Shown here: one piece after another, positions 10,074-61,774 of the stretch | Layout: each line of letters starts with the position of its first letter | Numbering within the stretch: position 1 is the stretch's first letter | From: an uncultured Gammaproteobacteria bacterium | GTDB taxonomy: Bacteria > Patescibacteriota > Microgenomatia > Daviesbacterales > UBA10151 | DNA length: 64,000 nt | Direction of reading: 5' to 3' | Assembly (NCBI GenBank): GCA_964500725.1 | Contig: CAZCNP010000004.1 | Span: 12,139 to 76,138, forward strand | Notes under the pieces: model-generated | What the model saw: only the letters and a program-made list of their open reading frames with translations | Database searches by the model: none | What the model was told of the DNA's origin: nothing | Translations under genes and position numbers: made by a program

Positions 10074-11328
10074 TCTTAGAACTGCCCTCAGCCCCCCAGA
10101 TTTTTACCACCCCATATACTCCATCATACCCTGGGTCAATTACCAAATCCCCTATTCTCACTTTACTAATTCCTTCTGCTATTTTATCCCCAGATACCTT
10201 GGCAATTTCCCTAATATCAACCTTTGTTAAAATCTTTATCTCGCTTCCTAAAATATTTGTTAACTTTTTATATTCATTTAAGACCTTTTGGGTTGTTGGA
10301 GCAGTTTGGTAAGCTTCTGCAATAATTTGTAAAAGCGGTACTAACATCCTATACCCTGCCTTCTGAGGAAAAGCTAAACTTTTGATAACCCCTTCCTTAT
10401 TTTCAATTTGTAAATCTTCATTTGACCTGCCAGCCAAAGCTTCTACCCTTTCCATTACCCCAACGGTTAATCCTCTGCCGCAAACAGGACACTTAGTTCC
10501 TTTGATTTTGGTATCTTCTGGCGAGTATTTCACATTACAACTTCTATGGCCAGTATAGTGATACTTACCCTCCTCTGGATAGAATTCGATAGTTCCAACT
10601 ATTTCCTGCTTTCTAATGGCCTGAAAGAGCCCTGAATACCCTAGGGAAACATCTTCTCCTATGACTGTTGATTCCCTACCCAAATTGGGCAAAGAATGAG
10701 CGTCTGAACAGGAAATAACTGACCTGCTGTCAAGCTCTTTTATCCTCCAATTCATTGCAGGGTCCGAGCTTAAACCAGTTTCTACTGCATAAATATAGGG
10801 AGTTAAATCCTCAAAAGCATCCTGTAAACTATCATATCCAGATTGGGAACCAAAAATCCCAAACCAGGGAGTCCAAGCATGCGAACAAATAAATAAAGCT
10901 TGCTCATCTATCTCTAAACACATCCGCAGTAAATCTTTAGAGGAAATCCCAACAATTGGCCTACCATCTGATGAAAGATTAGCCCGTTTGGCAAGAAGAG
11001 CTTGCTGCAGCTTAGCAGCAGATTCAAATGAAGGAAGAAATATTAAATTATGAACTCTTCTTACTGCCCCTTTATGGGAATAAATAGAAGAAACCTCTAC
11101 TGTTAAGACAAACTTAACATCTGAGGAATTATGAGTGAGAAATCCAGATCCATCTTCTTTTAACTGGCTTTTAAGTTCAGCAAACCATAAAGGGTGCAAA
11201 AAATCACCTGTGCCTAAAACATCAATTCCTTTTAGTTTGGCCCACTGCACCAAATTAGGCACATTTAATTGTTGGGAGCAGGCCCTACTAAACCTGGAAT
11301 GGATATGTAAATCTGCAATATATGCCAT
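10030..11328 (-). CDS. PHP-domain nuclease, EndoQ-like (TIGR00375-type)
   Basis: The N-terminal PHP motif ADLHIHSRFSRACS is followed by VLGTGDFLHPLW. There is an internal zinc-finger-like CPVCG. The protein is 432 aa. Confidence 0.6.
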   Translation of the reverse strand: MAYIADLHIHSRFSRACSQQLNVPNLVQWAKLKGIDVLGTGDFLHPLWFAELKSQLKEDGSGFLTHNSSDVKFVLTVEVSSIYSHKGAVRRVHNLIFLPSFESAAKLQQALLAKRANLSSDGRPIVGISSKDLLRMCLEIDEQALFICSHAWTPWFGIFGSQSGYDSLQDAFEDLTPYIYAVETGLSSDPAMNWRIKELDSRSVISCSDAHSLPNLGRESTVIGEDVSLGYSGLFQAIRKQEIVGTIEFYPEEGKYHYTGHRSCNVKYSPEDTKIKGTKCPVCGRGLTVGVMERVEALAGRSNEDLQIENKEGVIKSLAFPQKAGYRMLVPLLQIIAEAYQTAPTTQKVLNEYKKLTNILGSEIKILTKVDIREIAKVSGDKIAEGISKVRIGDLVIDPGYDGVYGVVKIWGAEGSSKIEEQKEAPQLGLFD

Positions 11329-15825: not shown

Positions 15826-18800
15826 TCAAGAAGAAACATATTCATCCCAGCTTTTGATTTGTAGATCTTCCATCTTTTTGGAAGCTAATGCTGAAGCTAA
15901 AAGTTCTGCTGCTTGTAAATTGGTAATAAGTGGTATACCTAAATCAACACAATTTCTTCTGATAATATACCCTTCTGTTTCCCCCATAGCTTGCTTTCCT
16001 TCAGATATATTTATTACCAAATCTATTCCCTCCTTTAAAAGATCCAAAACTGAAGGATGTTGATCTTCAAAAATCTTATAGATTCTGTTATTTTTAACAC
16101 CATTTTCAGTTAAAAACTTTGAGGTATGCTCTGTGGCATATATCTTTAACCCTAGACTTGCTAACACCTTAGCAGAAGCTAGCAAATCTAGCTTGTTTTT
16201 ATCTCCTCCAATTGATAAAAGAACCGAATTTTTAGGCATTTTAAAACCTGTTGCCAAAATTGCCTTCAAATACCCTTCTTGTAAATCATCCCCAAAACAA
16301 GCAACTTCTCCCGTGGAAGACATCTCTACCCTAAGCCTTGGATCTGCTCCTTTGATTCTACTAAAAGAAAACTGGGGTGCTTTTACACCTACATAATCTA
16401 AATCTATGGTTTTAAAATCACCTTTTATCTCTTCTCCTAACATAACCCTGGTTGCTAGCTCTACAAAATTATAGCCTGTGACTTTGGAGACAAATGGAAA
16501 AGAACGAGATGCTCTCAAATTCAGCTCTATCACCATGATTTTATTATCTTTGGCTAAAAACTGAATATTAAATGGGCCATTAATTTCTAAGGCTTTTAAA
16601 ATTTTTCTGGTAGCATTTTTCACTCTTCTAACAGTCTCCAGATATAATCTTTGAGGAGGCAGAACAATGGTTGCATCCCCTGAATGCACACCAGCATTTT
16701 CTACATGTTCAGAAATGGCATAAATTAACAAATCCCCTTTTACCCCTACTCCATCAACCTCAATTTCTTTAGCACCCTCTACGAATTTAGATATCACCAC
16801 AGGATGTTCGGTAGATATATCTGAAGCGCTTTTGAGAAACTTTTTCAACTCAGTAGCAGCATAGGCCACATTCATAGCAGATCCTGATAAAACATATGAG
16901 GGTCTAATTAGCACTGGATAGCCTATTTTTTTGGCAAAGGAAGCTGCATCCTCAACACTTTTTAGGCTTTGCCAGGCTGCTTGATCTATTCCTAATTTAT
17001 CCAAAAGCTTGGAGAACTTATCCCTATCTTCTGCCTGATCAATACTCTGAGCAGAGGTGCCTAGGATTTTATAGCCTGTCTGAAAACACTTCATAGCCAA
17101 ATTATTTGGCACTTGTCCGCCAAAACCTAAAACCAAACTAGCATCTTTTTCTATATCATAAATATCACTAACCCTCTCGTAGGTTAGCTGCTCAAAGTAT
17201 AGCTTATCTGCGCTATCATAATCTGTAGAAACTGTTTCAGGATTACAGTTGATAATAATGGTTTCTAGACCCTTAGAACGCAATGTTTGCGCACAAGTCA
17301 CAGAACACCAGTCAAATTCTACGGATGAACCAATTCTGTAAGGTCCAGAGCCTAAAACAATAGCCTTGTTAGTAGGCTCTTGCTTTTGCTCGCTTACCTC
17401 TGATTTATCTCCATGATAAGTTAAATACAAATAATTAGTTTTTGCTGGATATTCTCCTGCTAAAGTATCAATATGTTTTACCTGAGGAACTATTCCATGC
17501 TTTTTCCGATAATCTCTTATTTCCTGCTCACTTTTTTTGAACTTTCTGGCTATTACTTTATCTGAAAATCCCAACTTCTTTGCTTCCAGAATGGTTTTAT
17601 AGATGTTGGCTTTTAGCTGTTGGCTTTTAGCTGCTAATGGCAAATGGCCAATAGCCAGTAGCTCCCTCTCAAACTCGACCATCTCCTTAATTTGGTGTAA
17701 AAACCATGGATCAATACCTGTTGCTTCATAGATACTATCTACTGACTCCCCTTTTTCAAACCTTTTGGCTATTGCAAACAGTCTCTCTGTGGTAGGCAGC
17801 AGTTTAGTATCATCTACCTCATTTTCCAGCAGTCCATCCTGCCCAGTCTCCAACATTCTAATTGCTTTTTGCAAAACCTCAGGAAAACTTCTGCCTATTG
17901 CCATAACTTCTCCTACACTTTTCATTTCAGAACCTATTTGCTGTCTGGCTCCCACAAATTTTTGCAAATCCCATCTGGGAATTTTTACCACGATATAATC
18001 CAAACTTGGTTCAAAAAATGCAGAAGTCGATAAAGTCACACTGTTTTTTAACTCAGTTAGGTTGTAACCTAAACCAATTTTGGCAGCAATATAAGCCAGT
18101 GGATACCCGGTAGCTTTTGAGGCCAAAGCAGAAGAACGAGATAGCCTGGCATTAACTTCAATCACTCTATAGTCATTATTTGCAGGATTTAGGGCAAATT
18201 GAATATTACACTCTCCTATAATCCCTAGATGTTCAATTACTTGTAGGGAAAGTTTTCGCAAATAATAATACTGATAACTATTCAAGGTCTGTGAAGGCGC
18301 AACTACAATGCTTTCTCCTGTATGAATCCCCAGAGGATCAAAATTTTCCATGTTACAAACAGTAATTTTATTGCCTTGATTGTCCCTGACAACTTCATAT
18401 TCTATTTCTTTCCAATGCTTTAGATACTCCTCAACAGCAATTTGTGGGGCTTGTTTTAAAGCCAGTGCTACCATTTTGACAAATTCATCTTTACTATTTG
18501 CCACCCCAGACCCTAATCCCCCTAAAGAAAACCCTGATCTGATCAAAAGCGGATACCCCAGCTCCTCAGCAATCTTTAAAGCTTCATCAAGCGTGCGGGC
18601 AAATCCACCTTTTGGAACTTTAACCCTGATATTGCCAAGTTCGCGGGCAAACAGCTCTCTATCTTCGGTAATTTGGATACTTTTTACAGAAGAGCCTAAC
18701 ACTTTAATATTCCATTTTTTAAATACACCCATCTTATCCAAAGCCAACCCGCAATTTAGAGCAGTTTGCCCTCCAAAACCTAGGAAAATTCCATCTGGTT

Positions 18801-19035
18801 TTTCTTTCTCAATTACTTTTTGCACAAAATATGGGGTGACAGGCAGGAAATAAATTTTCTTTGCAAGCTCTTTTGAGGTTTGAATGGTGGCAATATTTGG
18901 GTTTATCAAAACTGCATCTATCCCTTCTTCTCTTAAGGCTTTCAGAGCTTGCGAACCAGAATAATCAAACTCACCTGCCTCGCCAATTTTTAATGCCCCA
19001 GAACCTAAAACAAGTACTTTTTTTAGCTTAATCAT
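15826..19035 (-). CDS. carB: carbamoyl-phosphate synthase large subunit
   Basis: A 1069-aa protein with two ATP-grasp halves. The N-terminus VLVLGSGALKIGEAGEFDYSGSQA matches CarB. Confidence 0.95.
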   Translation of the reverse strand: MIKLKKVLVLGSGALKIGEAGEFDYSGSQALKALREEGIDAVLINPNIATIQTSKELAKKIYFLPVTPYFVQKVIEKEKPDGIFLGFGGQTALNCGLALDKMGVFKKWNIKVLGSSVKSIQITEDRELFARELGNIRVKVPKGGFARTLDEALKIAEELGYPLLIRSGFSLGGLGSGVANSKDEFVKMVALALKQAPQIAVEEYLKHWKEIEYEVVRDNQGNKITVCNMENFDPLGIHTGESIVVAPSQTLNSYQYYYLRKLSLQVIEHLGIIGECNIQFALNPANNDYRVIEVNARLSRSSALASKATGYPLAYIAAKIGLGYNLTELKNSVTLSTSAFFEPSLDYIVVKIPRWDLQKFVGARQQIGSEMKSVGEVMAIGRSFPEVLQKAIRMLETGQDGLLENEVDDTKLLPTTERLFAIAKRFEKGESVDSIYEATGIDPWFLHQIKEMVEFERELLAIGHLPLAAKSQQLKANIYKTILEAKKLGFSDKVIARKFKKSEQEIRDYRKKHGIVPQVKHIDTLAGEYPAKTNYLYLTYHGDKSEVSEQKQEPTNKAIVLGSGPYRIGSSVEFDWCSVTCAQTLRSKGLETIIINCNPETVSTDYDSADKLYFEQLTYERVSDIYDIEKDASLVLGFGGQVPNNLAMKCFQTGYKILGTSAQSIDQAEDRDKFSKLLDKLGIDQAAWQSLKSVEDAASFAKKIGYPVLIRPSYVLSGSAMNVAYAATELKKFLKSASDISTEHPVVISKFVEGAKEIEVDGVGVKGDLLIYAISEHVENAGVHSGDATIVLPPQRLYLETVRRVKNATRKILKALEINGPFNIQFLAKDNKIMVIELNLRASRSFPFVSKVTGYNFVELATRVMLGEEIKGDFKTIDLDYVGVKAPQFSFSRIKGADPRLRVEMSSTGEVACFGDDLQEGYLKAILATGFKMPKNSVLLSIGGDKNKLDLLASAKVLASLGLKIYATEHTSKFLTENGVKNNRIYKIFEDQHPSVLDLLKEGIDLVINISEGKQAMGETEGYIIRRNCVDLGIPLITNLQAAELLASALASKKMEDLQIKSWDEYVSS

Positions 19036-20099
19036 AAGTTTTCCAAAAATTCATCAAATAAATATCCTGCATCAACTGGACCTGGGGAGGCTTCCGGGTG
19101 AAACTGAACTGCCATAAATGGCTTATTTTTATGTCTAATCCCCTCGTTTGTGCCATCATTTAGGTTAACAAACCACTCAATCCAATCTGCGCTTAAAGAA
19201 GTTGTATCAACTGCAAAACCATGATTTTGACTGGTTATGATAGCTTTTTTGCTAATTTGATCCTTTACTGGCTGATTATGACCCCTGTGACCAAATTTTA
19301 ATTTAAAAGTTTTCCCCCCAGCTGCCAAAGCAATAATTTGACTGCCTAAACAAATGCCAAAAGTGGGGATATTTTTATCTAGAAGTTTTTTAACATTTTC
19401 AATAGTTTTTTTAGCTTGCATTGGATCACCTGGACCATTTGAAACCATTACTCCATCAAACTTTAACCCCTCAGCTATAGGATCACAATCCCAAGGCACA
19501 ATTATAACCTGCACTCCCCTTTTAGTCAGGCTTCTGACAATATTTCCTTTAGTTCCACAATCTATTAAGATAATATTTTTCTTGCCGCTGCCAACAACTT
19601 CAATCTTCTCAACACTTACATTAGGCAAAACATTTTCCTTATTAGGATCATATTGAAGACGAGAATTGAATTGTCCATTTTCAATTTTCAATTTTCCATT
19701 TATTTCCATTCTTCCTAACATCACCCCATGGTCTCTTAGTTTAATAGTTAAAGCCCTGGTATCAATACCTTGCAAAGCAGGGATTTTTTCTTCTCTAAGC
19801 CAATCGCCTAAAGTTTTTTGGCTTTCAAAATGTGATAGGTTTTCAATATAATTTTGGACAATCAAACCCTTAACACGAATTTTGTTTGATTCCCAAAAAT
19901 CTTTTACTGGCACTCCATAATTTCCTTGTAAAGGATAAGTTAGAACTAAAATCTGCCCAAAATACGAAGGATCTGTCAATGATTCGGGGTAACCTACCAT
20001 TCCGGTGTTAAAAACTACCTCGCCTGAGGTGGAACCCTCAAACCCAAAACTTTGTCCTAAAAAAACTGTCCCATCGGACAGAATTAATCTACCCTGCAT
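19032..20099 (-). CDS. carA: carbamoyl-phosphate synthase small subunit (glutamine amidotransferase)
   Basis: The class I GATase triad context GICLGSQ is present, with a CarA-like N-terminal domain. The gene is translationally coupled to carB. Confidence 0.95.
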   Translation of the reverse strand: MQGRLILSDGTVFLGQSFGFEGSTSGEVVFNTGMVGYPESLTDPSYFGQILVLTYPLQGNYGVPVKDFWESNKIRVKGLIVQNYIENLSHFESQKTLGDWLREEKIPALQGIDTRALTIKLRDHGVMLGRMEINGKLKIENGQFNSRLQYDPNKENVLPNVSVEKIEVVGSGKKNIILIDCGTKGNIVRSLTKRGVQVIIVPWDCDPIAEGLKFDGVMVSNGPGDPMQAKKTIENVKKLLDKNIPTFGICLGSQIIALAAGGKTFKLKFGHRGHNQPVKDQISKKAIITSQNHGFAVDTTSLSADWIEWFVNLNDGTNEGIRHKNKPFMAVQFHPEASPGPVDAGYLFDEFLENL

Positions 20100-27588: not shown

Positions 27589-28458
27589 CTAGCTCTGACA
27601 ACTCGGACAAAAGTATGCGCCCCTTCCGCCCAACATGGTTTTCTTAATTTCTGTGCCGCATACCTTACATTTATGCTTATCTCTGCCATAAACAAAAGCA
27701 TAATCTAAAAAGTAACCTTTATGGCCTTCTGGATCCACAAAATGAGCTCGAGTTGATCCACCTCTTGCTATTCCTTCTTTTAAAGATTTTATTATTCCCT
27801 CAAAAAGAGCTTTAAACTGCTTATCTTGCAAATCTTTTACTTTGGTCCTGGGATCAATTTTGGCATTAAAGCATGCTTCATTTGCATAAATATTACCTAC
27901 CCCTGCTACCACTGATTGATCCATAATAGCTACTTTAACTGGCTGAGATTTATGTTTTAAGAGATTTGCTTTAAGAGTTTCCCAGGAAAACCCCTTCTCC
28001 AAAGGTTCTGGCCCTAATTTTTCCAACAAATTTTCAATTATCAATTTTCCATTTTCAATTACTTTAATCCAGCCAAACTTTCTCTGGTCATTAAAATATA
28101 GGTGCGACCCATCAGAAAAAGAAAATATTACCCTGGTATGAGTATTTGGCATTGCATCAACCATGTCAGGTGTAGGATGTCCTCCAATAAACCTTTCCCC
28201 TTTACCCTTCCTGCTTTCTCCTTTCCAGATTAGTTGTCCACTCATTTTTAGATGAAATAATAGAACTTTATCATCACTTACTTCTATGCCTAAAATCTTT
28301 GCCCTTCTCCATATATTGAGTATCTTTTGTCTCTCTACTTCATTAGGATTTCCTAGGAAAAATTTTTTGGATAAAATTTGGATTTTCTGGATTTTTGTAC
28401 CAATAATCCTCTTTTGCAAACCTAGCTTAATTATTTCAACCTCAGGAAGCTCTGGCAT
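27589..28458 (-). CDS. mutM: formamidopyrimidine-DNA glycosylase (Fpg/MutM family)
   Basis: The N-terminus reads MPELPEVE. The C-terminal zinc finger is CKVCGTEIKKTMLGGRGAYFCPSCQ. Confidence 0.85.
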   Translation of the reverse strand: MPELPEVEIIKLGLQKRIIGTKIQKIQILSKKFFLGNPNEVERQKILNIWRRAKILGIEVSDDKVLLFHLKMSGQLIWKGESRKGKGERFIGGHPTPDMVDAMPNTHTRVIFSFSDGSHLYFNDQRKFGWIKVIENGKLIIENLLEKLGPEPLEKGFSWETLKANLLKHKSQPVKVAIMDQSVVAGVGNIYANEACFNAKIDPRTKVKDLQDKQFKALFEGIIKSLKEGIARGGSTRAHFVDPEGHKGYFLDYAFVYGRDKHKCKVCGTEIKKTMLGGRGAYFCPSCQS

Positions 28459-33854: not shown

Positions 33855-34988
33855 TTATGGCTTAAGGTTTTCCTCTACTAATTCCAAAATTTCTTTTTTA
33901 AATCTTTCTTTAGAAAACTTTTCTGCATTTTTTCTGCAAACTTGGGGATCAAACTTTAGGCTTTCAAATTCATGCAAAGCTTTTATTAAGCTTCCTGTAT
34001 TAACCATCCCTGGACCACCATATAACAACCCAGTCTTTTTATCTTCCACTGTTTCTAAAAATCCACCAGATGAGGGAGCAATTACTGGAGTTCCTGCAGC
34101 CTGGGCTTCTATAGAGGTAATCCCAAAATCTTCATCTTCAGCAGCTACTATTAAAGCTTTCGCATTCTGCAGTAAAGTTACCCTTTCCTCATCAGACACC
34201 CAACCTAGAAAGTTCGTAGTTCGTAGTTTGTAGTTGGTAGATAGTTGCTTCAAATTTTCCATCTCCGGGCCGGTGCCTACTACTTTCAAGGGTAAACCTA
34301 ATCTACCGCAAGCTTCAACTACTACATCCGCCCCTTTTCCTCTAACCAATCTACTTAGTACTAAAAAGTAATTTTCCTTCCCCCTTTCCCCTTTATTCTT
34401 TACCCTAAATTCAGACAGATCAACAGGAGGATATATCACTACACTATCTCTTCTGTAAAACTTTTTAATCCTTTTTTGAATATTGTTAGAATTAGCCACT
34501 AATATATCTGGTCTTTGGGAAACTTCAAAATCATAAATTCTTAGAAAATGATTAGCCAACTCCCCTAAGACTCTAGTAACAGGGTTTTTCTTATAGTTAA
34601 AAGAGGTGACATAACCATATAAAAATCTAGGAGGGGTATGAATGTAGCTAATATGTAAAGTTTCTGGTTTGGTTATAACTGCCTTTGCTAGATAGGCTGC
34701 AGAGGAGGAAGAAATCACCAAATCAAACTCTCCCAAATCAAAGCTTTCAAACATCATGGGAGCAAACAACCTAAAAGGAGATAATAATTTATTTGCAAAA
34801 GGGAATTTCTGAAACCAGGAAGTCCTAATATCCCAACTTTTAAATCTTTTGCCATTCTCACCTAAACTCTCAGGGTTATAATAGGCAGTAAAAATGGGAG
34901 CTTCAGGGAAAATATCATGCAGAGCTTCCAATACCCTCTCAGCTCCCCCATATTCCCTTAAATAATCATGTGCCAACGCTACTTTCAT
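33855..34988 (-). CDS. glycosyltransferase family 4 (GT-B fold)
   Basis: The C-terminal GT4 signature EDFGITSIEAQAAGTPVIA is present. The gene carries an in-frame heptamer-repeat insertion at 34211-34247. Confidence 0.8.
   Translation of the reverse strand: MKVALAHDYLREYGGAERVLEALHDIFPEAPIFTAYYNPESLGENGKRFKSWDIRTSWFQKFPFANKLLSPFRLFAPMMFESFDLGEFDLVISSSSAAYLAKAVITKPETLHISYIHTPPRFLYGYVTSFNYKKNPVTRVLGELANHFLRIYDFEVSQRPDILVANSNNIQKRIKKFYRRDSVVIYPPVDLSEFRVKNKGERGKENYFLVLSRLVRGKGADVVVEACGRLGLPLKVVGTGPEMENLKQLSTNYKLRTTNFLGWVSDEERVTLLQNAKALIVAAEDEDFGITSIEAQAAGTPVIAPSSGGFLETVEDKKTGLLYGGPGMVNTGSLIKALHEFESLKFDPQVCRKNAEKFSKERFKKEILELVEENLKP
34211..34247. repeat. tandem heptamer repeat (AGTTNGT)x5 inside the GT4 gene, in frame
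   Basis: The sequence is agttcgt agttcgt agtttgt agttggt agatagt. It shares an identical 23-mer with the trpS gene (48757-48779). Confidence 0.8.
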
Positions 34989-37550: not shown

Positions 37551-39731
37551 TCAAATTGTAAGTGGCTTCATTTCTCCCCAATTAGGACCAATCTTGAGAT
37601 CAACTATTACTGGCACAGAAAGTTTTAGAGCATTTTCCATTTTATCTTTAACCATTTTGGCAGTCTCTTCTACAGATTTAGGATCACATTCAAATAACAG
37701 CTCATCATGAACCTGGAGGATCATCTGACAGGAGTGGCTAGTCGCTAGAGTCGAGAGTCTAGGAGGGGTATTTTCTTGACTCTTGACTCTAGACTCTAGA
37801 CTCTTATCTATTTCCACCATGGCTTTTTTGATCATGTCAGCGCTCGTCCCTTGAATGGGCATATTGACTGCTGCCCTTTCCCCTGCTGCTTTTAAGCTTC
37901 TATTGCCTACCTTTAGTTCTGGAATATATCTTCTTCTGCCCCAGAGAGTTTCTACATAGCCTTTTTCATATCCAAAAGCTAAAGTTTCCTGCATCCATTC
38001 CCTAACTTTGGGAAACTTTAAAAAATACTCAGCAATATATTCTCTGGCCATTTCATAGCTAATACCCAACTGTCTAGATAAAGCATGTGGGCCCTGTCCA
38101 TATAAAGTAGCAAAATTGATTGTTTTTCCTATCATTCTTTGCTGTCTTGTTACCTCATCTATTGGTACATTAAAAATATTGGCAGCAGTTGCAGCATGCA
38201 CATCCAACTCCTGCTCAAAGGCCTTTTTCAAACCTGGATCATCTGCCAAATGTGCCATAATCCTCAGCTCGATTTGGGAATAATCAGCTGCCAGCAAAAT
38301 TTTACCTTTGGGAGCTATAAAAGCTTTTCTAATTTCTCCTCCCATCTCACCTTTAATAGGGATGTTCTGCATGTTCGGATCTTTAGAAGAGAGCCTGCCT
38401 GTGGCTGCCCCTTCTACATTAAAGGTAGAATGGATTCTTCCTTTTTCGTCTGTATACTTTGGCAAAGCATCAATATAGGTGGAAACCAGCTTGAATAGCT
38501 GTCTGTATTCTAAAAGCAAAGGTATTACAGGATGAGCAGCAGATAGTTCATGCAGAGTAGCTTCATCTGTAGAACGGCCTGTTTTAGTCTTTCTTACTAC
38601 TGTTAAATTTAACTCATCAAAAAGTATCTCTGATAACTGCTTTGGACTGTTTATATTAAACTGATGTCCTACTTTTGAGTAAATATCTTGTTCTAAATCA
38701 ACTAATTTATCCTTTAGCTGCTTGCCAAACTTATTTAAAAACTTAAGGTCTATCAATACTCCAGCAGCAGACATTTTTTGCAAAACTTGTTCTACCTGCT
38801 TATCTAATTTAGCTGTCGCTGACAACTCCTCTTTGACAGCAGGCGTTTGATGTGTAAGAGCTGTTCCGCCAGGAATCCTTTCTATTAAGCTTTTAAATTC
38901 TAGCTCCTCAAATAATTTAATAACTTCCTGCTTGTCAAAATCATGCACTATACATTTTTCTAAATCCAAGCTTATAGGGGCTTTTAGATCTAAAGTCGCT
39001 AATTTTTTGCTAAGGGTTGCAGACTCTGCCCCTTCTGCCAATAGAGTCTGCGTTCTTTGGGGCAAAGTCTGTAGATTTTCTGCCTTATAAATTTCCTCTA
39101 CAGTCCCAAATTGGTGTATTAACTTGGTGGCTGTCACCTCTCCAATCCCATTTACCCCAGGAATATTATCTGAAGCATCTCCTGCTAAGCCTTTGTAATC
39201 CACCAGTTGCTTAGGAAAAAAGCCATACTTGGCAACAAATTCTTCTACTCCATACAAACCTACATCGTTAATAGTTTTTTTAGGCATAAATACCTTAATT
39301 TTTTTATCTATAAGCTGCATAATATCCCTATCACCTGTTACTACCACAATCTCTAAATTTTTATCTTTGTCTGCTTGAATAGCTAGTGTGCCAATTAAAT
39401 CATCTGCCTCAAAGCCTGCCAGGCTAAATTCGGGGATATTAAAGGCTTTGACTACTTCATGAACTCTTTTGTATTGGTTGAATAATCCATCATCTGCAGG
39501 ACCTCTAGTGGCTTTATATTGAGTATATGCCTGATGTCTGAAAGTAGGCCCTTTTTCATCCCAGGCAATGGCAATATATTCTGGATGCAGGTCTGAAACT
39601 ACCCGCAAAAGCATGGAAGAAAATCCATAAACAGCATTAACTAACTCCCCTGTTGAGGTAGTAAAAGGAGGTGTAGCATGATATGCCCTGTGAAGCAGGG
39701 CATTTCCATCAACCAAAACCAGTCTTTGCAT
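37551..39731 (-). CDS. polA: DNA polymerase I (5'-3' exonuclease plus polymerase domains)
   Basis: The N-terminus reads LVLVDGNALLHRAYHA. Motif C reads QVHDELLFE. The protein is 726 aa and carries an in-frame repeat-element insertion just before motif C. Confidence 0.95.
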   Translation of the reverse strand: MQRLVLVDGNALLHRAYHATPPFTTSTGELVNAVYGFSSMLLRVVSDLHPEYIAIAWDEKGPTFRHQAYTQYKATRGPADDGLFNQYKRVHEVVKAFNIPEFSLAGFEADDLIGTLAIQADKDKNLEIVVVTGDRDIMQLIDKKIKVFMPKKTINDVGLYGVEEFVAKYGFFPKQLVDYKGLAGDASDNIPGVNGIGEVTATKLIHQFGTVEEIYKAENLQTLPQRTQTLLAEGAESATLSKKLATLDLKAPISLDLEKCIVHDFDKQEVIKLFEELEFKSLIERIPGGTALTHQTPAVKEELSATAKLDKQVEQVLQKMSAAGVLIDLKFLNKFGKQLKDKLVDLEQDIYSKVGHQFNINSPKQLSEILFDELNLTVVRKTKTGRSTDEATLHELSAAHPVIPLLLEYRQLFKLVSTYIDALPKYTDEKGRIHSTFNVEGAATGRLSSKDPNMQNIPIKGEMGGEIRKAFIAPKGKILLAADYSQIELRIMAHLADDPGLKKAFEQELDVHAATAANIFNVPIDEVTRQQRMIGKTINFATLYGQGPHALSRQLGISYEMAREYIAEYFLKFPKVREWMQETLAFGYEKGYVETLWGRRRYIPELKVGNRSLKAAGERAAVNMPIQGTSADMIKKAMVEIDKSLESRVKSQENTPPRLSTLATSHSCQMILQVHDELLFECDPKSVEETAKMVKDKMENALKLSVPVIVDLKIGPNWGEMKPLTI
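37723..37796. repeat. short palindromic repeat element, intragenic in-frame copy within polA
   Basis: The 20-mer matches 34993-35012 exactly. Palindromic arms are built from ctagactc/gagtctag units. The element encodes an extra segment, roughly RVKSQENTPPRLSTLATSHS, in the PolA protein. Confidence 0.7.
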
Positions 39732-42328: not shown

Positions 42329-42984
42329 TTTTGGACTCTTTCCGAAAGCACAGTTTTTTCCACTTCATTTAAAGCCGAGGACGAAGCTTCTTTAGCTAAA
42401 AAAGCACAGCTTTGCAATTGATATTTGCTAATCTTATCAGTCAAATGTGGTTTACTCAACTCAGTTAATTTATCAATTAGCTCTTTGTTCCATAAAGAAA
42501 CCCTGTTGACAGTAGATCTAATAGCCATTCTAGCCCGTTTATCTGAAACCTGATTGTAGATTGATTGCAACACACTCATTTGCTCATTTATTCTCCCTGT
42601 TACCTTCTCTATAGCTACCTCGTCTCTGATATTAATCATGCCTTTTAACTCTTGCAGGTGAAATAAATAGCGAATAAGAGTTGGTTCAATCAAATCCTGA
42701 CGAGCTTCAACTAAGCTTTTTGCCTCTCTTATTCTACGTGTGGCAAATTCCATTTGTCTGTAAGCTTTAATTTGACCGTTTCCAGCAAATTGCAGTTCAA
42801 ATATTTCCCTGACTGATTTTAAAAAATATAAAGGTGAAGCTGGAGTAATCTTTGACTCACCAATTGAATCAACTTGGGCATAAGCTGGAGTAATGTAAAA
42901 TGTAAAATGTAAAATGTAAAATGTAAAAAGCAGTAAAACCAATCTAATTGTAAATTGTACATTGTAAATTGTAAATTTTCTCAT
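42307..42984 (-). CDS. secreted hypothetical protein (DUF5667-like)
   Basis: A signal peptide is present. The motif SPLYFLKSVRE is typical of a family common in Patescibacteria. The 5' end of the gene contains heptamer tandem repeats. Confidence 0.4.
   Translation of the reverse strand: MRKFTIYNVQFTIRLVLLLFTFYILHFTFYITPAYAQVDSIGESKITPASPLYFLKSVREIFELQFAGNGQIKAYRQMEFATRRIREAKSLVEARQDLIEPTLIRYLFHLQELKGMINIRDEVAIEKVTGRINEQMSVLQSIYNQVSDKRARMAIRSTVNRVSLWNKELIDKLTELSKPHLTDKISKYQLQSCAFLAKEASSSALNEVEKTVLSERVQKCLILKP
42893..42977. repeat. heptamer tandem arrays (ATGTAAA)x5 and (ATTGTAA)x4
   Basis: The sequence runs aatgtaaaatgtaaaatgtaaaatgtaaaatgtaaaa ... attgtaaattgtacattgtaaattgtaaatt. It overlaps the signal-peptide codons of the 42307..42984 gene and lies downstream of the ABC exporter gene. 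Confidence 0.85.
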
Positions 42985-44780: not shown

Positions 44781-44812
44781 AAAAAACCAGCCTGCTTAAG
44801 CTGGTTTCCATA
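44781..44812 (-). terminator. hairpin plus U-tract (minus-strand terminator/attenuator) just upstream of the ABC exporter start
   Basis: The stem accagc/gctggt (aaaccagcctgcttaagctggttt) is followed on the minus strand by TTTTTT. Confidence 0.4.
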
Positions 44813-44814
44813 AT

Positions 44815-44846
44815 TTTAAATTGTAAATTATAAATTTTAAATTTCT
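44815..44846. repeat. TGTAAAT-like heptamer repeat tract
   Basis: The tract ttttaaattgtaaattataaattttaaattt is related to the array at 42947-42977. It sits on the other side of the ABC exporter gene. Confidence 0.6.
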
Positions 44847-47603: not shown

Positions 47604-47924
47604 CTACCGGATTTTTGATCCTGGAGGAACTTTTTGGGATGGTTTTAGGAAAATAGGTTTGTTGTTATCTGCGCACAAAATCATCCCTTGAGACTCTAAA
47701 CCCATCATCATCCTTGGTTCTAAATTAGCTACCACAACCGCTTGTTTGCCTTTCAAATCTTCGCTCTTATACCATTGTTTTATGCCTGCCAGAATCTGTC
47801 TAGGTTGTTCTTCCCCTAAATCCACCTTTAGTTTAATTAGTTTCTCAGATCCTTCTATATCCTCTGCCTCCAGAACAGTACCAACTTTTAATTCAACCTT
47901 GGCAAAGTCTTCTATTGCAATCAT
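47604..47924 (-). CDS. tRNA-binding domain protein (CsaA / EMAP-II-like)
   Basis: The segment FAKVELKVGTVLEAE is typical of the OB-fold tRNA-binding domain. Confidence 0.7.
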   Translation of the reverse strand: MIAIEDFAKVELKVGTVLEAEDIEGSEKLIKLKVDLGEEQPRQILAGIKQWYKSEDLKGKQAVVVANLEPRMMMGLESQGMILCADNNKPIFLKPSQKVPPGSKIR

Positions 47925-48274
47925 AGTTGCTCCAACCCTAATACTAATTTCACTGCTTCTTCCACTTCTTGCAGCTTACTTTTGGAGATCTGCCCAATCT
48001 TTTTAATTAAACGATCCTGATCAATACTTCTAATAAGTACTGGCACTAAAACAGAGTGCTCATCAAAACCTCTTGGTTTGCCTAAATCTATGATCTCGGA
48101 AGTATAAGAAACAGGCACTATTGAACTACTCGGTATAACAATTACATGATATGTACCTTGATTAACGCTGTTATCCGAAATTATTAGAGCAGGTCGTTTT
48201 TTATGAATTTCCCTACCAAATGCAGGCTCTAAATTAACTACCCAAAATTCCCCTCTTGTAATTAGTTTGGCCAT
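47921..48274 (-). CDS. mazF: MazF/PemK-family endoribonuclease toxin
   Basis: The segment RGEFWVVNLEPAFGREIHKKRPALIIS is MazF/PemK-like. Confidence 0.8.
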   Translation of the reverse strand: MAKLITRGEFWVVNLEPAFGREIHKKRPALIISDNSVNQGTYHVIVIPSSSIVPVSYTSEIIDLGKPRGFDEHSVLVPVLIRSIDQDRLIKKIGQISKSKLQEVEEAVKLVLGLEQL

Positions 48275-48528: not shown

Positions 48529-49524
48529 TTATTTAAAGTAGTCAAGTTTCATGGCCTTTTTAACTTCAGCCAAAGTCTTTTGGGCTTCTGCCCGGGCTTT
48601 GTCAGTTCCCTCTTTTAATATCTTTTCTACCAATTCTGGCTGGGTTTCATATTCAGCTCTCTTTTTTCTAATTGGATCCAAGAAATTATTTAAAACTTGG
48701 ACTAGATATTTTTTTACCTCAATATCCCCTACTTGGCCCCTTGAGTAAAGTAGTTTGTAGTTCGTAGTTTGTAGTTGGTCGCTCTCAGACCCAAAAGCAT
48801 CAAGATATATAAAAACAGGGTTTCCCTCTACATGTCCTGGGTCTGTAGCTTTTATTCTAGTAGGGTCTGTATACATACTCATCACTTTTTTTTCTACTTC
48901 CTCAGTTGAATCAGTTAAAAAAATGGCATTATTTAAAGATTTTCCCATTTTAGCTTGGCCATCTATACCTGGTAAAGTTGGCACCTCCCCTATCAAAGGT
49001 TCAGGGATAGGAAAAACTTCTCCATAAGTGCTATTAAACTTAATGGCAATATCCCTAGCATATTCCACATGAGCTTTTTGGTCTTTTCCTACAGGCACTA
49101 GATTAGCCCGAGGAAGCAAAATATCTGCAGCCATTAAAACTGGGTAATAAAATAAACCCACAGTATCTTCAGACCCTTGGTCTAATTTTTCCTTTAAAGC
49201 AGGCTGCCTGGCAATCAAAGCTCTAGGGGTTAAAACACTTAAAAAATAAGCCAGCTCTAACACTTCTGGAACTTGGGATTGGATAAAAAAGGTAACTTTA
49301 TTAGGATCTAACCCCACAGATAAATACCCTAACATCAATCCTTTAATATTTTCTTCCAGCTGATCTGCTTTATTAAAATGAGTAGTCAGAGCATGGAGAT
49401 CTACCAAGGGTATAAACATTTCATACTCATCTTGCAGTTTAACCCTATTTTTTAAAGAACCAATGTAATTACCCAGATGAAAACTATCATTGGTAGGCCT
49501 ATCCCCTGTTAAAATCCGTTTCAT
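48529..49524 (-). CDS. trpS: tryptophan--tRNA ligase
   Basis: A class I HIGH-like signature TGDRPTNDSFHLGNYIG is present, with the KMGKS-like KMGKSLNNA. It contains an in-frame heptamer-repeat insertion. Confidence 0.95.
   Translation of the reverse strand: MKRILTGDRPTNDSFHLGNYIGSLKNRVKLQDEYEMFIPLVDLHALTTHFNKADQLEENIKGLMLGYLSVGLDPNKVTFFIQSQVPEVLELAYFLSVLTPRALIARQPALKEKLDQGSEDTVGLFYYPVLMAADILLPRANLVPVGKDQKAHVEYARDIAIKFNSTYGEVFPIPEPLIGEVPTLPGIDGQAKMGKSLNNAIFLTDSTEEVEKKVMSMYTDPTRIKATDPGHVEGNPVFIYLDAFGSESDQLQTTNYKLLYSRGQVGDIEVKKYLVQVLNNFLDPIRKKRAEYETQPELVEKILKEGTDKARAEAQKTLAEVKKAMKLDYFK
48749..48780. repeat. tandem heptamer repeat (AGTTNGT)x4 inside trpS, in frame
   Basis: The sequence is agtagtttgtagttcgtagtttgtagttggtc. 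A 23-mer is identical to GT4 gene positions 34216-34238. It encodes the segment ...QLQTTNYKLLYS.... Confidence 0.8.
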
Positions 49525-49970
49525 GATTTATTTCCTTTTACCATATCTTCTTTAATTAGCTCTTCGGCAAGCTTCAACCCTTGTTTGGTATAAAAACCAT
49601 CATAGGTAAATACACCATCAGCTTTAATTTTTTTAGCAACAACTGCTACTGAACAATCAATTAGCGTATTTTTCTTGCTTCCCTTAGGATTAAATAGCGC
49701 AGCTGAGTTCTTTAAAATACCCTCATCAACAATATGAACTAACAATTGGTCATTTTTAATCATCTCAATAAGCTGAGTAGTTACCGCAGGTGACGGTAAC
49801 ACACGTTGAAATAGTGATATTATTTCAAAAAGTACTGAAGTGGGATAAATAAGCTTAAAACTTTGGGCAATTAATTGCTCAAATGTCCTGGTTGCTTTAG
49901 GATTTAGTGGATCGTTAGGATTATATAAAGCAAAAATAGCATCTGAGTCAACTACCACAGCTTTAACCAT
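49521..49970 (-). CDS. PIN-domain toxin (VapC-like)
   Basis: The N-terminal acidic-residue context VVVDSDAIFAL is followed by a second conserved D context. It lies downstream of a Phd-type antitoxin gene. Confidence 0.65.
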   Translation of the reverse strand: MVKAVVVDSDAIFALYNPNDPLNPKATRTFEQLIAQSFKLIYPTSVLFEIISLFQRVLPSPAVTTQLIEMIKNDQLLVHIVDEGILKNSAALFNPKGSKKNTLIDCSVAVVAKKIKADGVFTYDGFYTKQGLKLAEELIKEDMVKGNKS

Positions 49971-50238
49971 ATAATATACTGTCTGCCCTTTCGCGCAAAT
50001 CAGATGGTAAACTTTTCAACTGCTCTCTGCTGTCACTTGCTAATTTAAGCATATCTAAAGAAGCCTGCAAAGCCTTAGTTTGCTTCAGTTTCTCTAAATC
50101 CTCGAGGCTAATAATTGCGGCTTGAGGCTTATTGTTAGTAGTTAAAACTACTGCATGTTTTTTGGTCTTAACAGCTTCAATGATAGATTTATAAGACTTC
50201 TGCAGATTTCTGGCTGGCATAGTATGGGTATTTAACAT
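49963..50238 (-). CDS. Phd/YefM-type antitoxin
   Basis: A 91-aa protein with a Phd-like N-terminus. It overlaps the downstream PIN gene. Confidence 0.6.
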   Translation of the reverse strand: MLNTHTMPARNLQKSYKSIIEAVKTKKHAVVLTTNNKPQAAIISLEDLEKLKQTKALQASLDMLKLASDSREQLKSLPSDLRERADSILYG

Positions 50239-50326: not shown

Positions 50327-50710
50327 TCACGCTAATTTTAACCCTTGTATCCTTTTAAAATGATTCATATTCCTAGTTAGTAATGTTAGATTATTTTCCA
50401 GAGCAACTGAGGCAATCAAAAGGTCAAAATCTTCCAGTCGTTTCCCATCCTTTTCCAACTCAGCTTTGATTTTACCAAATTCTATCATAATCTCATCATT
50501 TAGATTTAACATACCAAGATTAAGTATATTCAAAGTATATTTTAACAGTTCATAGGATTTTGTTGGATTATCTGATTTATAAACACCATATAATAATTCC
50601 CCCAAAGTAATAATACTAATTGCTGCTCCTTTTTCTAGGATATCTTTATCAAGGAATTTTTTCTTTCTTAAATGATCAACTAGAATATCTGTATCAAGTA
50701 AGTATTTCAT
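50327..50710 (-). CDS. vapC: PIN-domain toxin VapC
   Basis: The N-terminus reads KYLLDTDILVDHL and a C-terminal LLTRNMNHF motif is present. Confidence 0.8.
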   Translation of the reverse strand: MKYLLDTDILVDHLRKKKFLDKDILEKGAAISIITLGELLYGVYKSDNPTKSYELLKYTLNILNLGMLNLNDEIMIEFGKIKAELEKDGKRLEDFDLLIASVALENNLTLLTRNMNHFKRIQGLKLA

Positions 50711-54056: not shown

Positions 54057-55342
54057 ATCTTTTTTCTAAACTGCTCGTAGCTTGTTAAAACTGGAGTATG
54101 TTCTGAAGTTTGATATTCCTGCTTAACTAAAATCTTGGTATCATCTTTTATGTCTTGATGCAACACTACCCCAGGGCCTACTAAAGAATTTGATCCCACT
54201 CTAACGCCTGGCATAGTGGAAGCATTTACTCCAATCCTGGCTCCCCTGCCAGCTATTAAGCCTAATTTATTCCTGCCTGTATCAATTTTTTGTTCAGCAA
54301 CTTTTATTGTTTGGTTATCTAACCTTAAATTTGCCAGCACAGCTCCGGAGCCCATCCCAAAATCCCCTTCTATAACCGAATCACCAATATAGTTGGTGTG
54401 AAACCAGCAATTTGCTCCAATATAGCTCCTAGTAATATCAGAGTTAAAACCAGTTACACAGCCTGCTTCTAAATCAACTTCTCTGATCATTGAGTTATTG
54501 CCCACAATACAATTTTTTCCAATATATGCAGGCCCTTTTATAGCTGCTCCTTCAAAAACCTTTGCCCCCTCCTCTATGATTACTTTACCCTCTATAATAG
54601 CTTTACTGGACACCTTAGCCCCTGGGGATATTTCTTGCTCAACCTGGGATAAAAAGTAAGTTGTAATATCTAAAATATGCCAGGGATATTTTAGAGGAAG
54701 CCATACCCCGCTATACTTGGCAAATCTGACTTTCAACCCATCTTGAATCATTTGATCCAAGGCCACCTCATACACATCATCTTTGCTGCTTTTAGCTTTT
54801 TGTAAATAATTTATAAGCTGTTGGCCATCTTTAAAGTAGTCAACCACTAATTTAACTAAATCTGAGGGCTCATTTCCTTCCCCTGGCTTTTCTACTATAC
54901 CCTCTACCCTATCCCCTAAACCCTTTTTTATATACCCTCCGGGAAAATACTTTTTAACTTGTAATCCTGTCAGGACTATATCTGCCTCTTGAACATTTAC
55001 AACTCCCTCAAATATTTTAGGCTCTATGACATCTTCCGCATTTATTATTACAAGTTCTCCGTCTAGCAAATCTTTGGCAGACAGTATTGCATCAGACATA
55101 CCTGTAGGCTCATTTTGCAGTCTAATCTGAAACTTCAGATTCAAGCTTTGAGCAATCTCGGCAATTGCCCCTTTGCTGCTTTCTTTGGTCACAATAATAA
55201 ATTGGTCAAAATTAGCTATTTGAGAGAGATGTTTTAAGTTGTGGTAAATCAGAGGTTGTCCTAAAAATGGCAGCAGGTATTTTTCTTCAACAATAGGCCA
55301 CATTCTCTTACCCTCCCCTGCTGCCAAAACCAAAATTTGCAT
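54053..55342 (-). CDS. sugar-phosphate nucleotidyltransferase with a C-terminal left-handed beta-helix (GlmU-like two-domain protein)
   Basis: The N-terminal NTP-transferase motif [13 protein letters not shown] is present. The C-terminal half has hexapeptide repeats. Confidence 0.7.
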
Positions 55343-57699: not shown

Positions 57700-57772
57700 T
57701 ACCAGGGGTGGGGTGCGCGCCCACGACCGCCGGGATATGAATCCGGTGCTCTACTAGCTGAGCTACCCTGGC
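57700..57772 (-). tRNA. tRNA(CAU) (elongator Met-like) with a non-canonical T-loop
   Basis: A 73-nt cloverleaf forms on the minus strand. The acceptor is GCCAGGG/CCCTGGT, the D-arm GCTC-AGCTAGTA-GAGC and the anticodon arm CCGGA-TTCATAT-CCCGG. The T-arm is GTGGG-CGCGCAC-CCCAC, which lacks T54, psi55 and A58, and the D-loop has A18 instead of G18. Confidence 0.5.
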
Positions 57773-61700: not shown

Positions 61701-61774
61701 TGGTAGGCCCGGAAGGAATCGAACCCTCGTCTTGACTGTATAAGAATCAGGTATTACCATTATACGACGGGCCT
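61701..61774 (-). tRNA. tRNA-Ile (UAU)
   Basis: A 74-nt cloverleaf with encoded CCA. The acceptor is AGGCCCG/CGGGCCT with A73, the D-arm GTAT-AATGGTA-ATAC, the anticodon arm TGATT-CTTATAC-AGTCA (anticodon TAT) and the T-arm GAGGG-TTCGATT-CCTTC. Confidence 0.6.

Follow-up and report, generated by a model that had tools for sequence, protein, structure and literature searches.

The STRR sequences of heterocystous cyanobacteria, which are mostly intergenic tandem arrays of heptanucleotide units such as CCCCAGT, TTGGTCA, or CAACAGT, have been known since 1990. Heptanucleotide repeats form the most abundant class of long simple sequence repeats (LSSR) within most bacterial genomes, and polymerase slippage has been proposed as their origin, according to a survey from 2007 as it is summarized in two later papers (Mrazek, Guo and Shah 2007, per PMC4679880, PMC4692102). 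At least one STRR array sits in a functional gene, that of the RNase P RNA, in a report known to us through its citation (Vioque 1997, cited in PMC2858038). In Geobacter metallireducens, elements of four heptamers (GGACCGG x4) occur in 49 copies, and intragenic ones have been reported (PMC2700814). For the TAACTGA repeats, MacGregor has pointed out that stop codons dictate which strand of a heptamer repeat can code, and a reading in which each heptamer is bound by one protein domain has been proposed for cold-shock/S1-type proteins (PMC4679880). A different kind of repeated DNA is found within the genes of Rickettsia, where the Rickettsia palindromic elements (RPE) are palindromes of approximately 150 bp that are read in a single frame as one conserved peptide and constitute a net insertion (PMC10969869). 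Here we report an analysis of heptanucleotide arrays in a stretch of 64,000 nucleotides from contig CAZCNP010000004.1 of a Candidatus Daviesbacteria genome (hereafter, the window), which centers on an identical 23-mer shared by a GT4-family glycosyltransferase gene and by trpS, the gene for tryptophan--tRNA ligase (TrpRS). An initial annotation of the window had attributed this 23-mer to a small repeat element that inserts into open reading frames (ORFs), analogous to RPE.

The DNA under analysis comprises the 64 kb of this genome and approximately 1 Mb from its relatives, all centered on trpS or the GT4 gene. We propose, with a probability of roughly 0.6, that the two 23-mers are members of (AACTACN)n, that is, short heptanucleotide simple-sequence arrays that were seeded from local codons, extended and homogenized in place by 7-base misalignment, and filtered by selection. 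The 23-mer GTAGTTCGTAGTTTGTAGTTGGT occurs twice on the forward strand of the window, at 34216-34238 and 48757-48779, exactly as first described, and an exact match of this length was found in none of 100 dinucleotide-preserving shuffles. Tandem Repeats Finder places the GT4 copy inside a period-7 array at 34211-34240 (4.3 copies) and the trpS copy in a period-7 array at 48750-48776 (3.9 copies), with 90-91% matches, so the earlier assignment of the 23-mer to 7-base arrays holds as well; a head-to-tail 7-nt unit in at least three copies is also a feature of LSSR. The coding-strand unit of both arrays is (AACTACN)n, and they are the only two members of this unit family in the 64 kb. Both arrays are free of stop codons within minus-strand ORFs, and the peptides quoted for them, KQLSTNYKLRTTNFLG and SESDQLQTTNYKLLYS, are correct.

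The claim of a common reading frame proved wrong. In GT4, the 23-mer begins at codon position 1 (ACC AAC TAC AAA CTA CGA ACT AC, encoding TNYKLRT), whereas in trpS it begins at codon position 2 ((G)AC CAA CTA CAA ACT ACG AAC TAC, encoding DQLQTTNY), a 1-base offset. The resemblance of the two peptides arises only because 21 bases of a 7-base repeat take in each of the three frames. Their shared orientation is real yet uninformative, because the complement GTAGTTN holds a TAG codon and coding is possible on the AACTACN strand only; among the matches listed from other phyla, all 47 of 47 (AACTACN)3 arrays in long stop-free ORFs have AACTACN as the sense strand. The same listed matches place (AACTACN)3 arrays in many phyla, which rules out AACTACN as a lineage-specific unit. 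Because the frames differ between the two genes, the shared 23-mer is a DNA-level repeat and not a conserved protein motif, as the initial annotation had held. The two sites are similar over 28 nt, with a single mismatch, and the similarity stops where the arrays do; comparison of the flanks detected no homology beyond the array. The predicted folding of the DNA at the GT4 and trpS sites (-2.8 and -2.2 kcal/mol; z-scores -0.05 and +0.53) is no better than that of shuffles, neither site contains a palindrome or terminal inverted repeats (near trpS there are only distant weak inverted repeats, and at the GT4 site there are none), and an Rfam scan of the window returned tRNAs only, with no known RNA family at the arrays.

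Seven-base periodicity is widespread in this DNA. Tandem Repeats Finder detected eleven period-7 arrays in the window, all but one of them inside ORFs. By a lag-identity score, the window contains 7 period-7 arrays versus 0.1 in shuffles, none for periods 4-6, 8-11, 13, and 15, and a single period-12 array, the rest having period 14, which is twice 7. In the relatives, 893 kb around the trpS orthologues contained 53 period-7 arrays versus 0-4 for other periods that are not multiples of 7. Period 7 is thus over-represented against both other periods and shuffles, as in LSSR. At a slightly lower score threshold, the relatives yield 62 arrays in approximately 45 unit families, of which 48 (77%) lie in ORFs of at least 120 codons. 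Daviesbacteria contain 8-14 arrays per 100 kb, relatives whose TrpRS is 59-66% identical contain 3.6 per 100 kb, and the same method found none in 50 kb of E. coli. Neighboring units are the most alike, and they commonly follow an XXYY order, two of one variant and then two of another (in the window at 37774-37805 and 34211-34240; at 10782-10811 of locus L203, 10764-10793 of L205, and 998-1028 of L207), which is as expected for single-unit duplication or local conversion.

At the trpS site the array is not an insertion. Hundreds of TrpRS orthologues are available at 78-90% identity to the window protein, identical proteins are found in three assemblies, and the closest solved structure is 2a4m, the D. 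radiodurans TrpRS II. The segment has equal length in nearly all of 120 orthologues; most of these carry Q[IV][AT][KSN]YK[ED]QYTK, approximately 25 carry an almost invariant QTTNYKLLYS, and in orthologues without the array its positions vary freely. The segment aligns with ...VQA--LKDQYRAGG... of D. radiodurans TrpRS II and falls inside a helix predicted by the structure model at residues 247-261 with pLDDT >90. These results rule out an insertion in a surface loop of TrpRS, and the trpS array replaces an ancestral helix at constant length. On a neighbor-joining tree built without the segment, the ~25 array-bearing proteins are scattered; this tree is star-like and has no support values, and the firm claim is limited to the presence of the array in two clades, one of >78% and one of 60-65% identity. 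The segment had been expected to be lineage-specific, but the array peptide also occurs, though patchily, in distant orthologues of the second clade (L172, L173, L187, and L191). An identical 30-mer is common to L208, whose TrpRS is 90% identical to that of the window, and to L172 and L173 (64%). Between TrpRS lineages that are 61-64% identical, the codons of the array are approximately 100% identical, whereas the rest of the gene uses the same codon at only 44-49% of identical residues; the counts of 11 of 11 within the array and 85 of 194 outside it differ at p = 2e-4; since codon identity inside the array far exceeds that elsewhere in trpS, the array is a DNA-level entity. Together with the difference in frames, this rules out protein-level conservation as the cause of the match.

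Unrelated heptamer families occupy the same trpS position in other lineages, at odds with the insertion of one small element. These include five perfect AAATCTC units (ENLKSQISNLKSRY; L131, L162, and L176), AAATTTC (ENFKFQISNFKLLY; L166), CAAGTCA/CAAGTTA (L152 and L177), and GAAACTC (L148) and ACAAGAG (L146), the last two located by array scan only. Codon alignment of the AACTACN, AAATCTC, AAATTTC, and CAAGTCA/CAAGTTA arrays demonstrated that the length of the segment is unchanged, and array boundaries also shift at constant TrpRS length, as in L127, where the array reaches one unit further to the left (SENYQLQTTNYKLLY). A cryptic periodicity is still seen in orthologues that lack an overt array: the identity within the 51-nt segment is 0.38 at lag 7 and 0.45 at lag 14, whereas control windows from the same genes give 0.26. 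A ready seed for AACTACN is offered by the common ancestral codons ACA AAC TAC AAA (T-N-Y-K), which already repeat ACAAA at a 7-base lag, and GCA AAC TAC AAA is found in the array-free orthologue L137.

The trpS gene of the window is set among toxin-antitoxin genes, namely a PemK/MazF-like gene (47921-48274), a PIN gene (49521-49970) with PhdYeFM (49963-50238), and a further PIN gene (50327-50710). A stand-alone tRNA_bind (PF01588) gene lies nearby at 47604-47924, and some Daviesbacteria TrpRS proteins are fused to PF01588 (P0085, P0104, and P0108) or to a YbaK-like PF04073 domain (P0042).

The GT4 orthologues of Daviesbacteria are 73-85% identical and contain two hypervariable sites, the second of which holds the 23-mer. 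In its short form, site 2 has 13 residues between GPE and FLGWV (...LKKIAGKNVE), and in its expanded forms 17 residues (ATNYQLPTTN, AVTCNLKPET, KFKVQSAKFKTIE, and others), the window array corresponding to +4 aa relative to the short orthologues. In the structure model, the site comprises the end of a helix (residues 243-252) and the loop before a strand (260-262). The proposal that the repeat adds a peptide segment thus stands for GT4, at a loop, and falls for TrpRS, with its equal length and helical position. At the DNA level, site 2 of syntenic loci contains AACTACC in L203 and L204, GTAACCT/GAAACCT in L205, AAAGTKC in L207, and no array in L206. Site 1 is an interdomain linker, modeled as coil, whose length varies from 11 to 43 residues among orthologues; its recurrent peptides GKGERGK, KVQSAKLKV, and SRQSSVVRQSESRRLKA correspond to the units GGAAAGG, AAAGTKC, and CAGTCGT, respectively.

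In some GT4 orthologues, site 2 reaches up to 29 residues by further insertions nested in the array. At the peptide level, stretches of 4-12 residues within the AACTACN array were noted in P0150, P0138, P0194, P0123, P0216, and P0211 (e.g., NYKQHTSHSGLPTTN). They bring to mind the small dispersed repeats that lie within heptamer arrays of cyanobacteria.

At hot spots in polA, fpg, and GT4, different genomes carry different unit families (the coordinates of the arrays in the window are given in Table 1). After the MVEID motif of polA, these are AGAGTCN, CAGTCGT, GGAAAAT plus AATTCTC, AAAGTGC, AAAAYTC, or no array. In the interdomain linker of fpg, L204-L206 carry (NACAGGT)n at the place of the GAAAATT array of the window and at equal length. 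In a DUF5667 protein, two heptamer arrays encode the whole of the N-terminal hydrophobic/signal segment (LFTFYILHFTFYI, KFTIYNVQFTI). These arrays are shared with L130; in contrast, L208, despite its 90% identical TrpRS, lacks them and has an unrelated N-terminus. The same two genomes, the window and L208, have the trpS array in common and unrelated arrays in polA. Array turnover can therefore be fast. Small 23S_rRNA_IVP / bAvd-like genes for four-helix-bundle proteins are present in L203 (7265-7570), L204 (6981-7343), and L208 (8137-8493), just downstream of polA in the former two, and upstream of trpS and far from polA in the latter. Diversity-generating retroelements have bAvd as their accessory protein; the three stretches showed no reverse transcriptase.

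Table 1. Heptanucleotide arrays of the window and the two genes that share the 23-mer
Feature	Position	Strand	Remarks
(GAAAATT) array in carA	19669..19701	-	linker between CPSase small-chain and GATase domains, aa 133-144
(GAAAATT) array, fpg interdomain linker	28029..28060	-	aa 133-144; length-neutral
(GGAAAGG)-type array in fpg/mutM	28192..28226	-	aa 78-89; +6 aa vs L205 and L206
GT4-family glycosyltransferase, 377 aa	33855..34988	-	Pfam Glycos_transf_1 + Glyco_transf_4
(AACTACN) x4.3 array in GT4 glycosyltransferase	34211..34240	-	encodes S-TNYKLRTTN-F, aa 250-260; holds 23-mer 34216-34238
(GGAAAGG)-type array, GT4 interdomain linker (site 1)	34376..34394	-	encodes KGERGKE, aa 199-205
(AGAGTCN) array in polA	37774..37805	-	aa 643-653, after MVEID motif
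Arrays (TTTACAT) x5.3 and (TTTACAA) x4.6 in DUF5667 protein	42892..42977	-	N-terminal hydrophobic segment
Intergenic (AATTTTA)-type array	44812..44844	.	~35 nt upstream of ABC-transporter start
Tryptophan--tRNA ligase (trpS), 331 aa	48529..49524	-	Pfam tRNA-synt_1b; 100% match annotated Candidatus Daviesbacteria
(AACTACN) x4 array in trpS	48750..48779	-	encodes DQLQTTNYKL, aa 249-259; holds 23-mer 48757-48779
(GGTATAG)-type array in nucleotidyl-transferase/hexapeptide-repeat gene	54895..54924	-	aa 140-150

The sole intergenic array of the window adjoins a short hairpin, ccagcctgcttaagctgg (region 44782-44844), and it is placed much like the heptamer repeats near start codons that have been described in Nostoc and Beggiatoaceae. 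A 14-nt unit, TAGCTGTTGGCTTT, twice the 7-nt period, is repeated 2.4 times at 17600-17633 inside an ORF of 1069 aa (15826-19035). On the minus strand, at 61701-61774 and 57700-57772, the window also holds a tRNA-Ile with the anticodon TAT, an unusual isoacceptor in bacteria, and a further tRNA that was found by Rfam and not by ARAGORN.

In the mechanism that we favor, a local proto-repeat would seed each array, in trpS the ancestral T-N-Y-K codons. Replication misalignment in the 7-base register, either by slippage or by a transient slip followed by copying and realignment, would then extend and homogenize the proto-repeat, with the outcome that neighboring codons may be overwritten at constant length, or units may be added with compensating small indels. 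Selection would retain those arrays that are stop-free in frame as positioned, at tolerant places such as interdomain linkers, loops, a variable helix, or a signal peptide. If the N of AACTACN is T, one of the three phases contains TAA; in the window N is C, A, or G, and L204 tolerates two T at N, both out of frame. All three frames are used in turn by a 7-base repeat, so that any frame would yield the same 7-residue periodic peptide. The arrays would have no function of their own and would be nearly neutral, recoding tolerant protein segments. Identity over 23 bases would require only the same stop-free, widespread unit and agreement at three degenerate N positions, and identical array codons in distant lineages are likewise predicted by independent homogenization from the same seed, because only the N positions are free once the unit and its phase are fixed. 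The signs that bear on slippage are all indirect, namely the XXYY order, the shifting boundaries, and the cryptic lag-7/14 periodicity; the molecular step is inferred.

Several observations weigh against an origin in place, and some of them speak for dispersal in trans. Neither slippage nor unit-number polymorphism was observed directly. In GT4 (+2, +3, +4, and +11 aa) and in fpg (+6 aa), no net length change is a multiple of 7 or 21 nt, which obliges one to assume extra compensating indels, and the polA families, which are wholly different between genomes with 90% identical TrpRS, have no obvious local seed. Under the trans explanation, which we regard as rather unlikely, arrays would be copied between loci by ectopic gene conversion or by a templated/mobile process, a limited repertoire of heptamer families would hop among permissive sites, and the GT4 and trpS 23-mers would be a recent copy or conversion; it comes closest to the idea of the initial annotation and to the small dispersed repeats of cyanobacteria. 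Non-orthologous arrays belong to the same family at a rate of 5.0%, versus 1.7% (approximately a third) for random stop-free coding heptamers, in a comparison that used coarse site clustering, loci all centered on trpS or GT4, and a crude null ignoring the Lys/Asn/Gln-rich composition of loops, which itself favors AAA-containing units. The same-family rates within loci (5/59) and between loci (105/2149) are, however, not significantly different. Three same-family pairs occur in the window (AACTACN, GAAAATT, and GGAAAGG); one family is present at both variable GT4 sites in L207 at the DNA level and in P0134, P0136, and P0159 at the peptide level only; CAGTCGT arrays are found in both polA and GT4 of L203; and perfect AAAGTGC arrays are found in two genes of L157. 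Moreover, the trpS array of the window differs from that of its closest relative, L208, by two bases, both of which match the GT4 array. The 30-mer shared by TrpRS lineages 64% identical and the nested insertions of GT4 could also be read as signs of copying. On the other hand, the arrays lack defined ends, terminal repeats, target duplications, and homologous flanks, their length and boundaries differ among orthologues, the trpS site holds no insertion and its seed pre-exists in ancestral codons, and ~45 families among 62 arrays are not a small repertoire. None of these results shows that a discrete element transposed or was inserted. A stronger form of the proposal seems unlikely to us: the arrays would be a minimal intragenic repeat class spreading in trans, either by ectopic conversion or through an enzyme writing 7-base repeats from a template at breaks, with AACTACN, AAAGTKC, CAGTCGT, GGAAAGG, and GAAAATT moving among permissive housekeeping sites of the candidate phyla radiation (CPR) and the GT4/trpS 23-mer as a recent product. 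If true, it would mean that the loops, linkers, and even helices of CPR housekeeping proteins are continually rewritten.

A selected function of the DNA, mRNA, or peptide, such as binding of a protein with one domain per heptamer, pacing of translation, or a heptad-periodic helix or linker, is an improbable explanation. It could account for the retention of trpS array nucleotides where TrpRS is only 61-64% identical, for the recurrence of arrays at the same sites in many genomes, and for the position of the trpS array in a confidently modeled helix, to which a heptamer array would give a 7-residue periodicity; regulatory roles have also been proposed for the heptamer repeats of Nostoc and Beggiatoaceae. 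Yet the arrays sit in housekeeping genes that are not related to one another, the shared DNA is translated in more than one frame, and array turnover is seen between genomes whose TrpRS is 90% identical. Since related genomes have unrelated units, or none, at the same sites, L206 being without arrays at polA, GT4, and fpg, a function that depends on the sequence is unlikely. The arrays do not fit a phase-variable contingency locus either: they lie in essential or housekeeping genes (trpS, polA, fpg, and carA), and we reject this reading because in every orthologue read the trpS array stays in frame without a change of length and the proteins of three assemblies are identical. Finally, QTTNYKLLYS could be ancestral TrpRS sequence that GT4 matches by a chance low-complexity resemblance. 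In line with this, the peptide occurs in four distant orthologues and in ~25 of the 120 close ones, and the chance that two AACTACN arrays agree at three N positions is approximately 5-10%, as estimated from N usage. This combination of conserved coding and coincidence is highly improbable and largely refuted by the lack of any 23-mer match in shuffles, the patchy distribution on the tree built without the segment, the codon identity of the array far above that of the rest of trpS, the genome-wide enrichment of period 7, and the free variation of the same positions in array-free orthologues.

Two long-standing questions are touched by these arrays, namely why 7-base repeats are the favored long simple repeat in bacteria, and how STRR-like families arise and spread. 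Daviesbacteria provide a natural test bed for them, with hundreds of related genomes, alignable array positions in trpS, polA, fpg, GT4, and carA, and states that include the absence of an array, cryptic periodicity, and as many as five perfect units, with different families at one site. Gains, family switches, and homogenization can therefore be counted on a phylogeny, and slippage in situ can be separated from copying. A structured helix in an essential aminoacyl-tRNA synthetase can be rewritten by a mutational process that leaves its length unchanged. Recurrent CPR peptides such as TTNYKL, KVQSAKFK, and SVVSRQSS should be regarded as by-products of DNA repeats rather than conserved motifs, and annotation of the arrays as mobile elements should be avoided.

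Compared with the described systems, the arrays share with RPE and with intragenic miniature inverted-repeat transposable elements the presence of repeated DNA in frame in unrelated housekeeping genes without destroying them, and the GT4 array adds loop residues. The analogy to RPE nevertheless fails. Instead of a unit of 100-150 bp with fixed ends, there is a similarity of 28 nt that ends at the array edges, in arrays of 28-30 nt whose length varies among orthologues and that have no element ends. Palindromes, hairpins, and terminal inverted repeats are lacking, as is flanking homology, and in place of a net insertion with one peptide in one frame we found a 1-nt frame offset, an unchanged TrpRS, and +4 aa in GT4 only. 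With the STRR of heterocystous cyanobacteria and the TAACTGA repeats of Beggiatoaceae, Cyanobacteria, and Bacteroidetes, the arrays have in common that they are dispersed tandem heptamers; those systems comprise few families of unsettled origin (PMC4679880). Those repeats, however, are mainly intergenic, often lie just upstream of start codons, reach up to 43 units, and have other unit sequences, and TAACTGA, unlike AACTACN, allows no read-through on its sense strand. The organism, the units, and the 77% of arrays in ORFs also set the arrays apart from cyanobacterial STRR in the strict sense. The elements of Geobacter are similar in being arrays of four heptamers of approximately 28 nt, but they form one GC-rich family of many near-identical copies that is read as regulatory RNA elements, whereas here dozens of AT-rich families have few copies each, and orthologous sites differ between genomes.

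The closest known kind of repeat is the heptanucleotide LSSR, which, as far as the summaries of the 2007 survey describe it, has the same head-to-tail 7-nt units, short arrays, over-representation of period 7, many families per genome, and a proposed origin by slippage. A literature search found no description of heptamer repeats in CPR or Daviesbacteria, and the arrays of this CPR/Patescibacteria lineage depart from LSSR in three aspects that are new: they lie predominantly within protein-coding housekeeping genes, including essential ones; they reappear in different genomes at the same permissive sites, where the unit families turn over; and, in trpS and fpg, they overwrite codons at constant length, which in the essential tryptophanyl synthetase extends to the rewriting of a structured helix.

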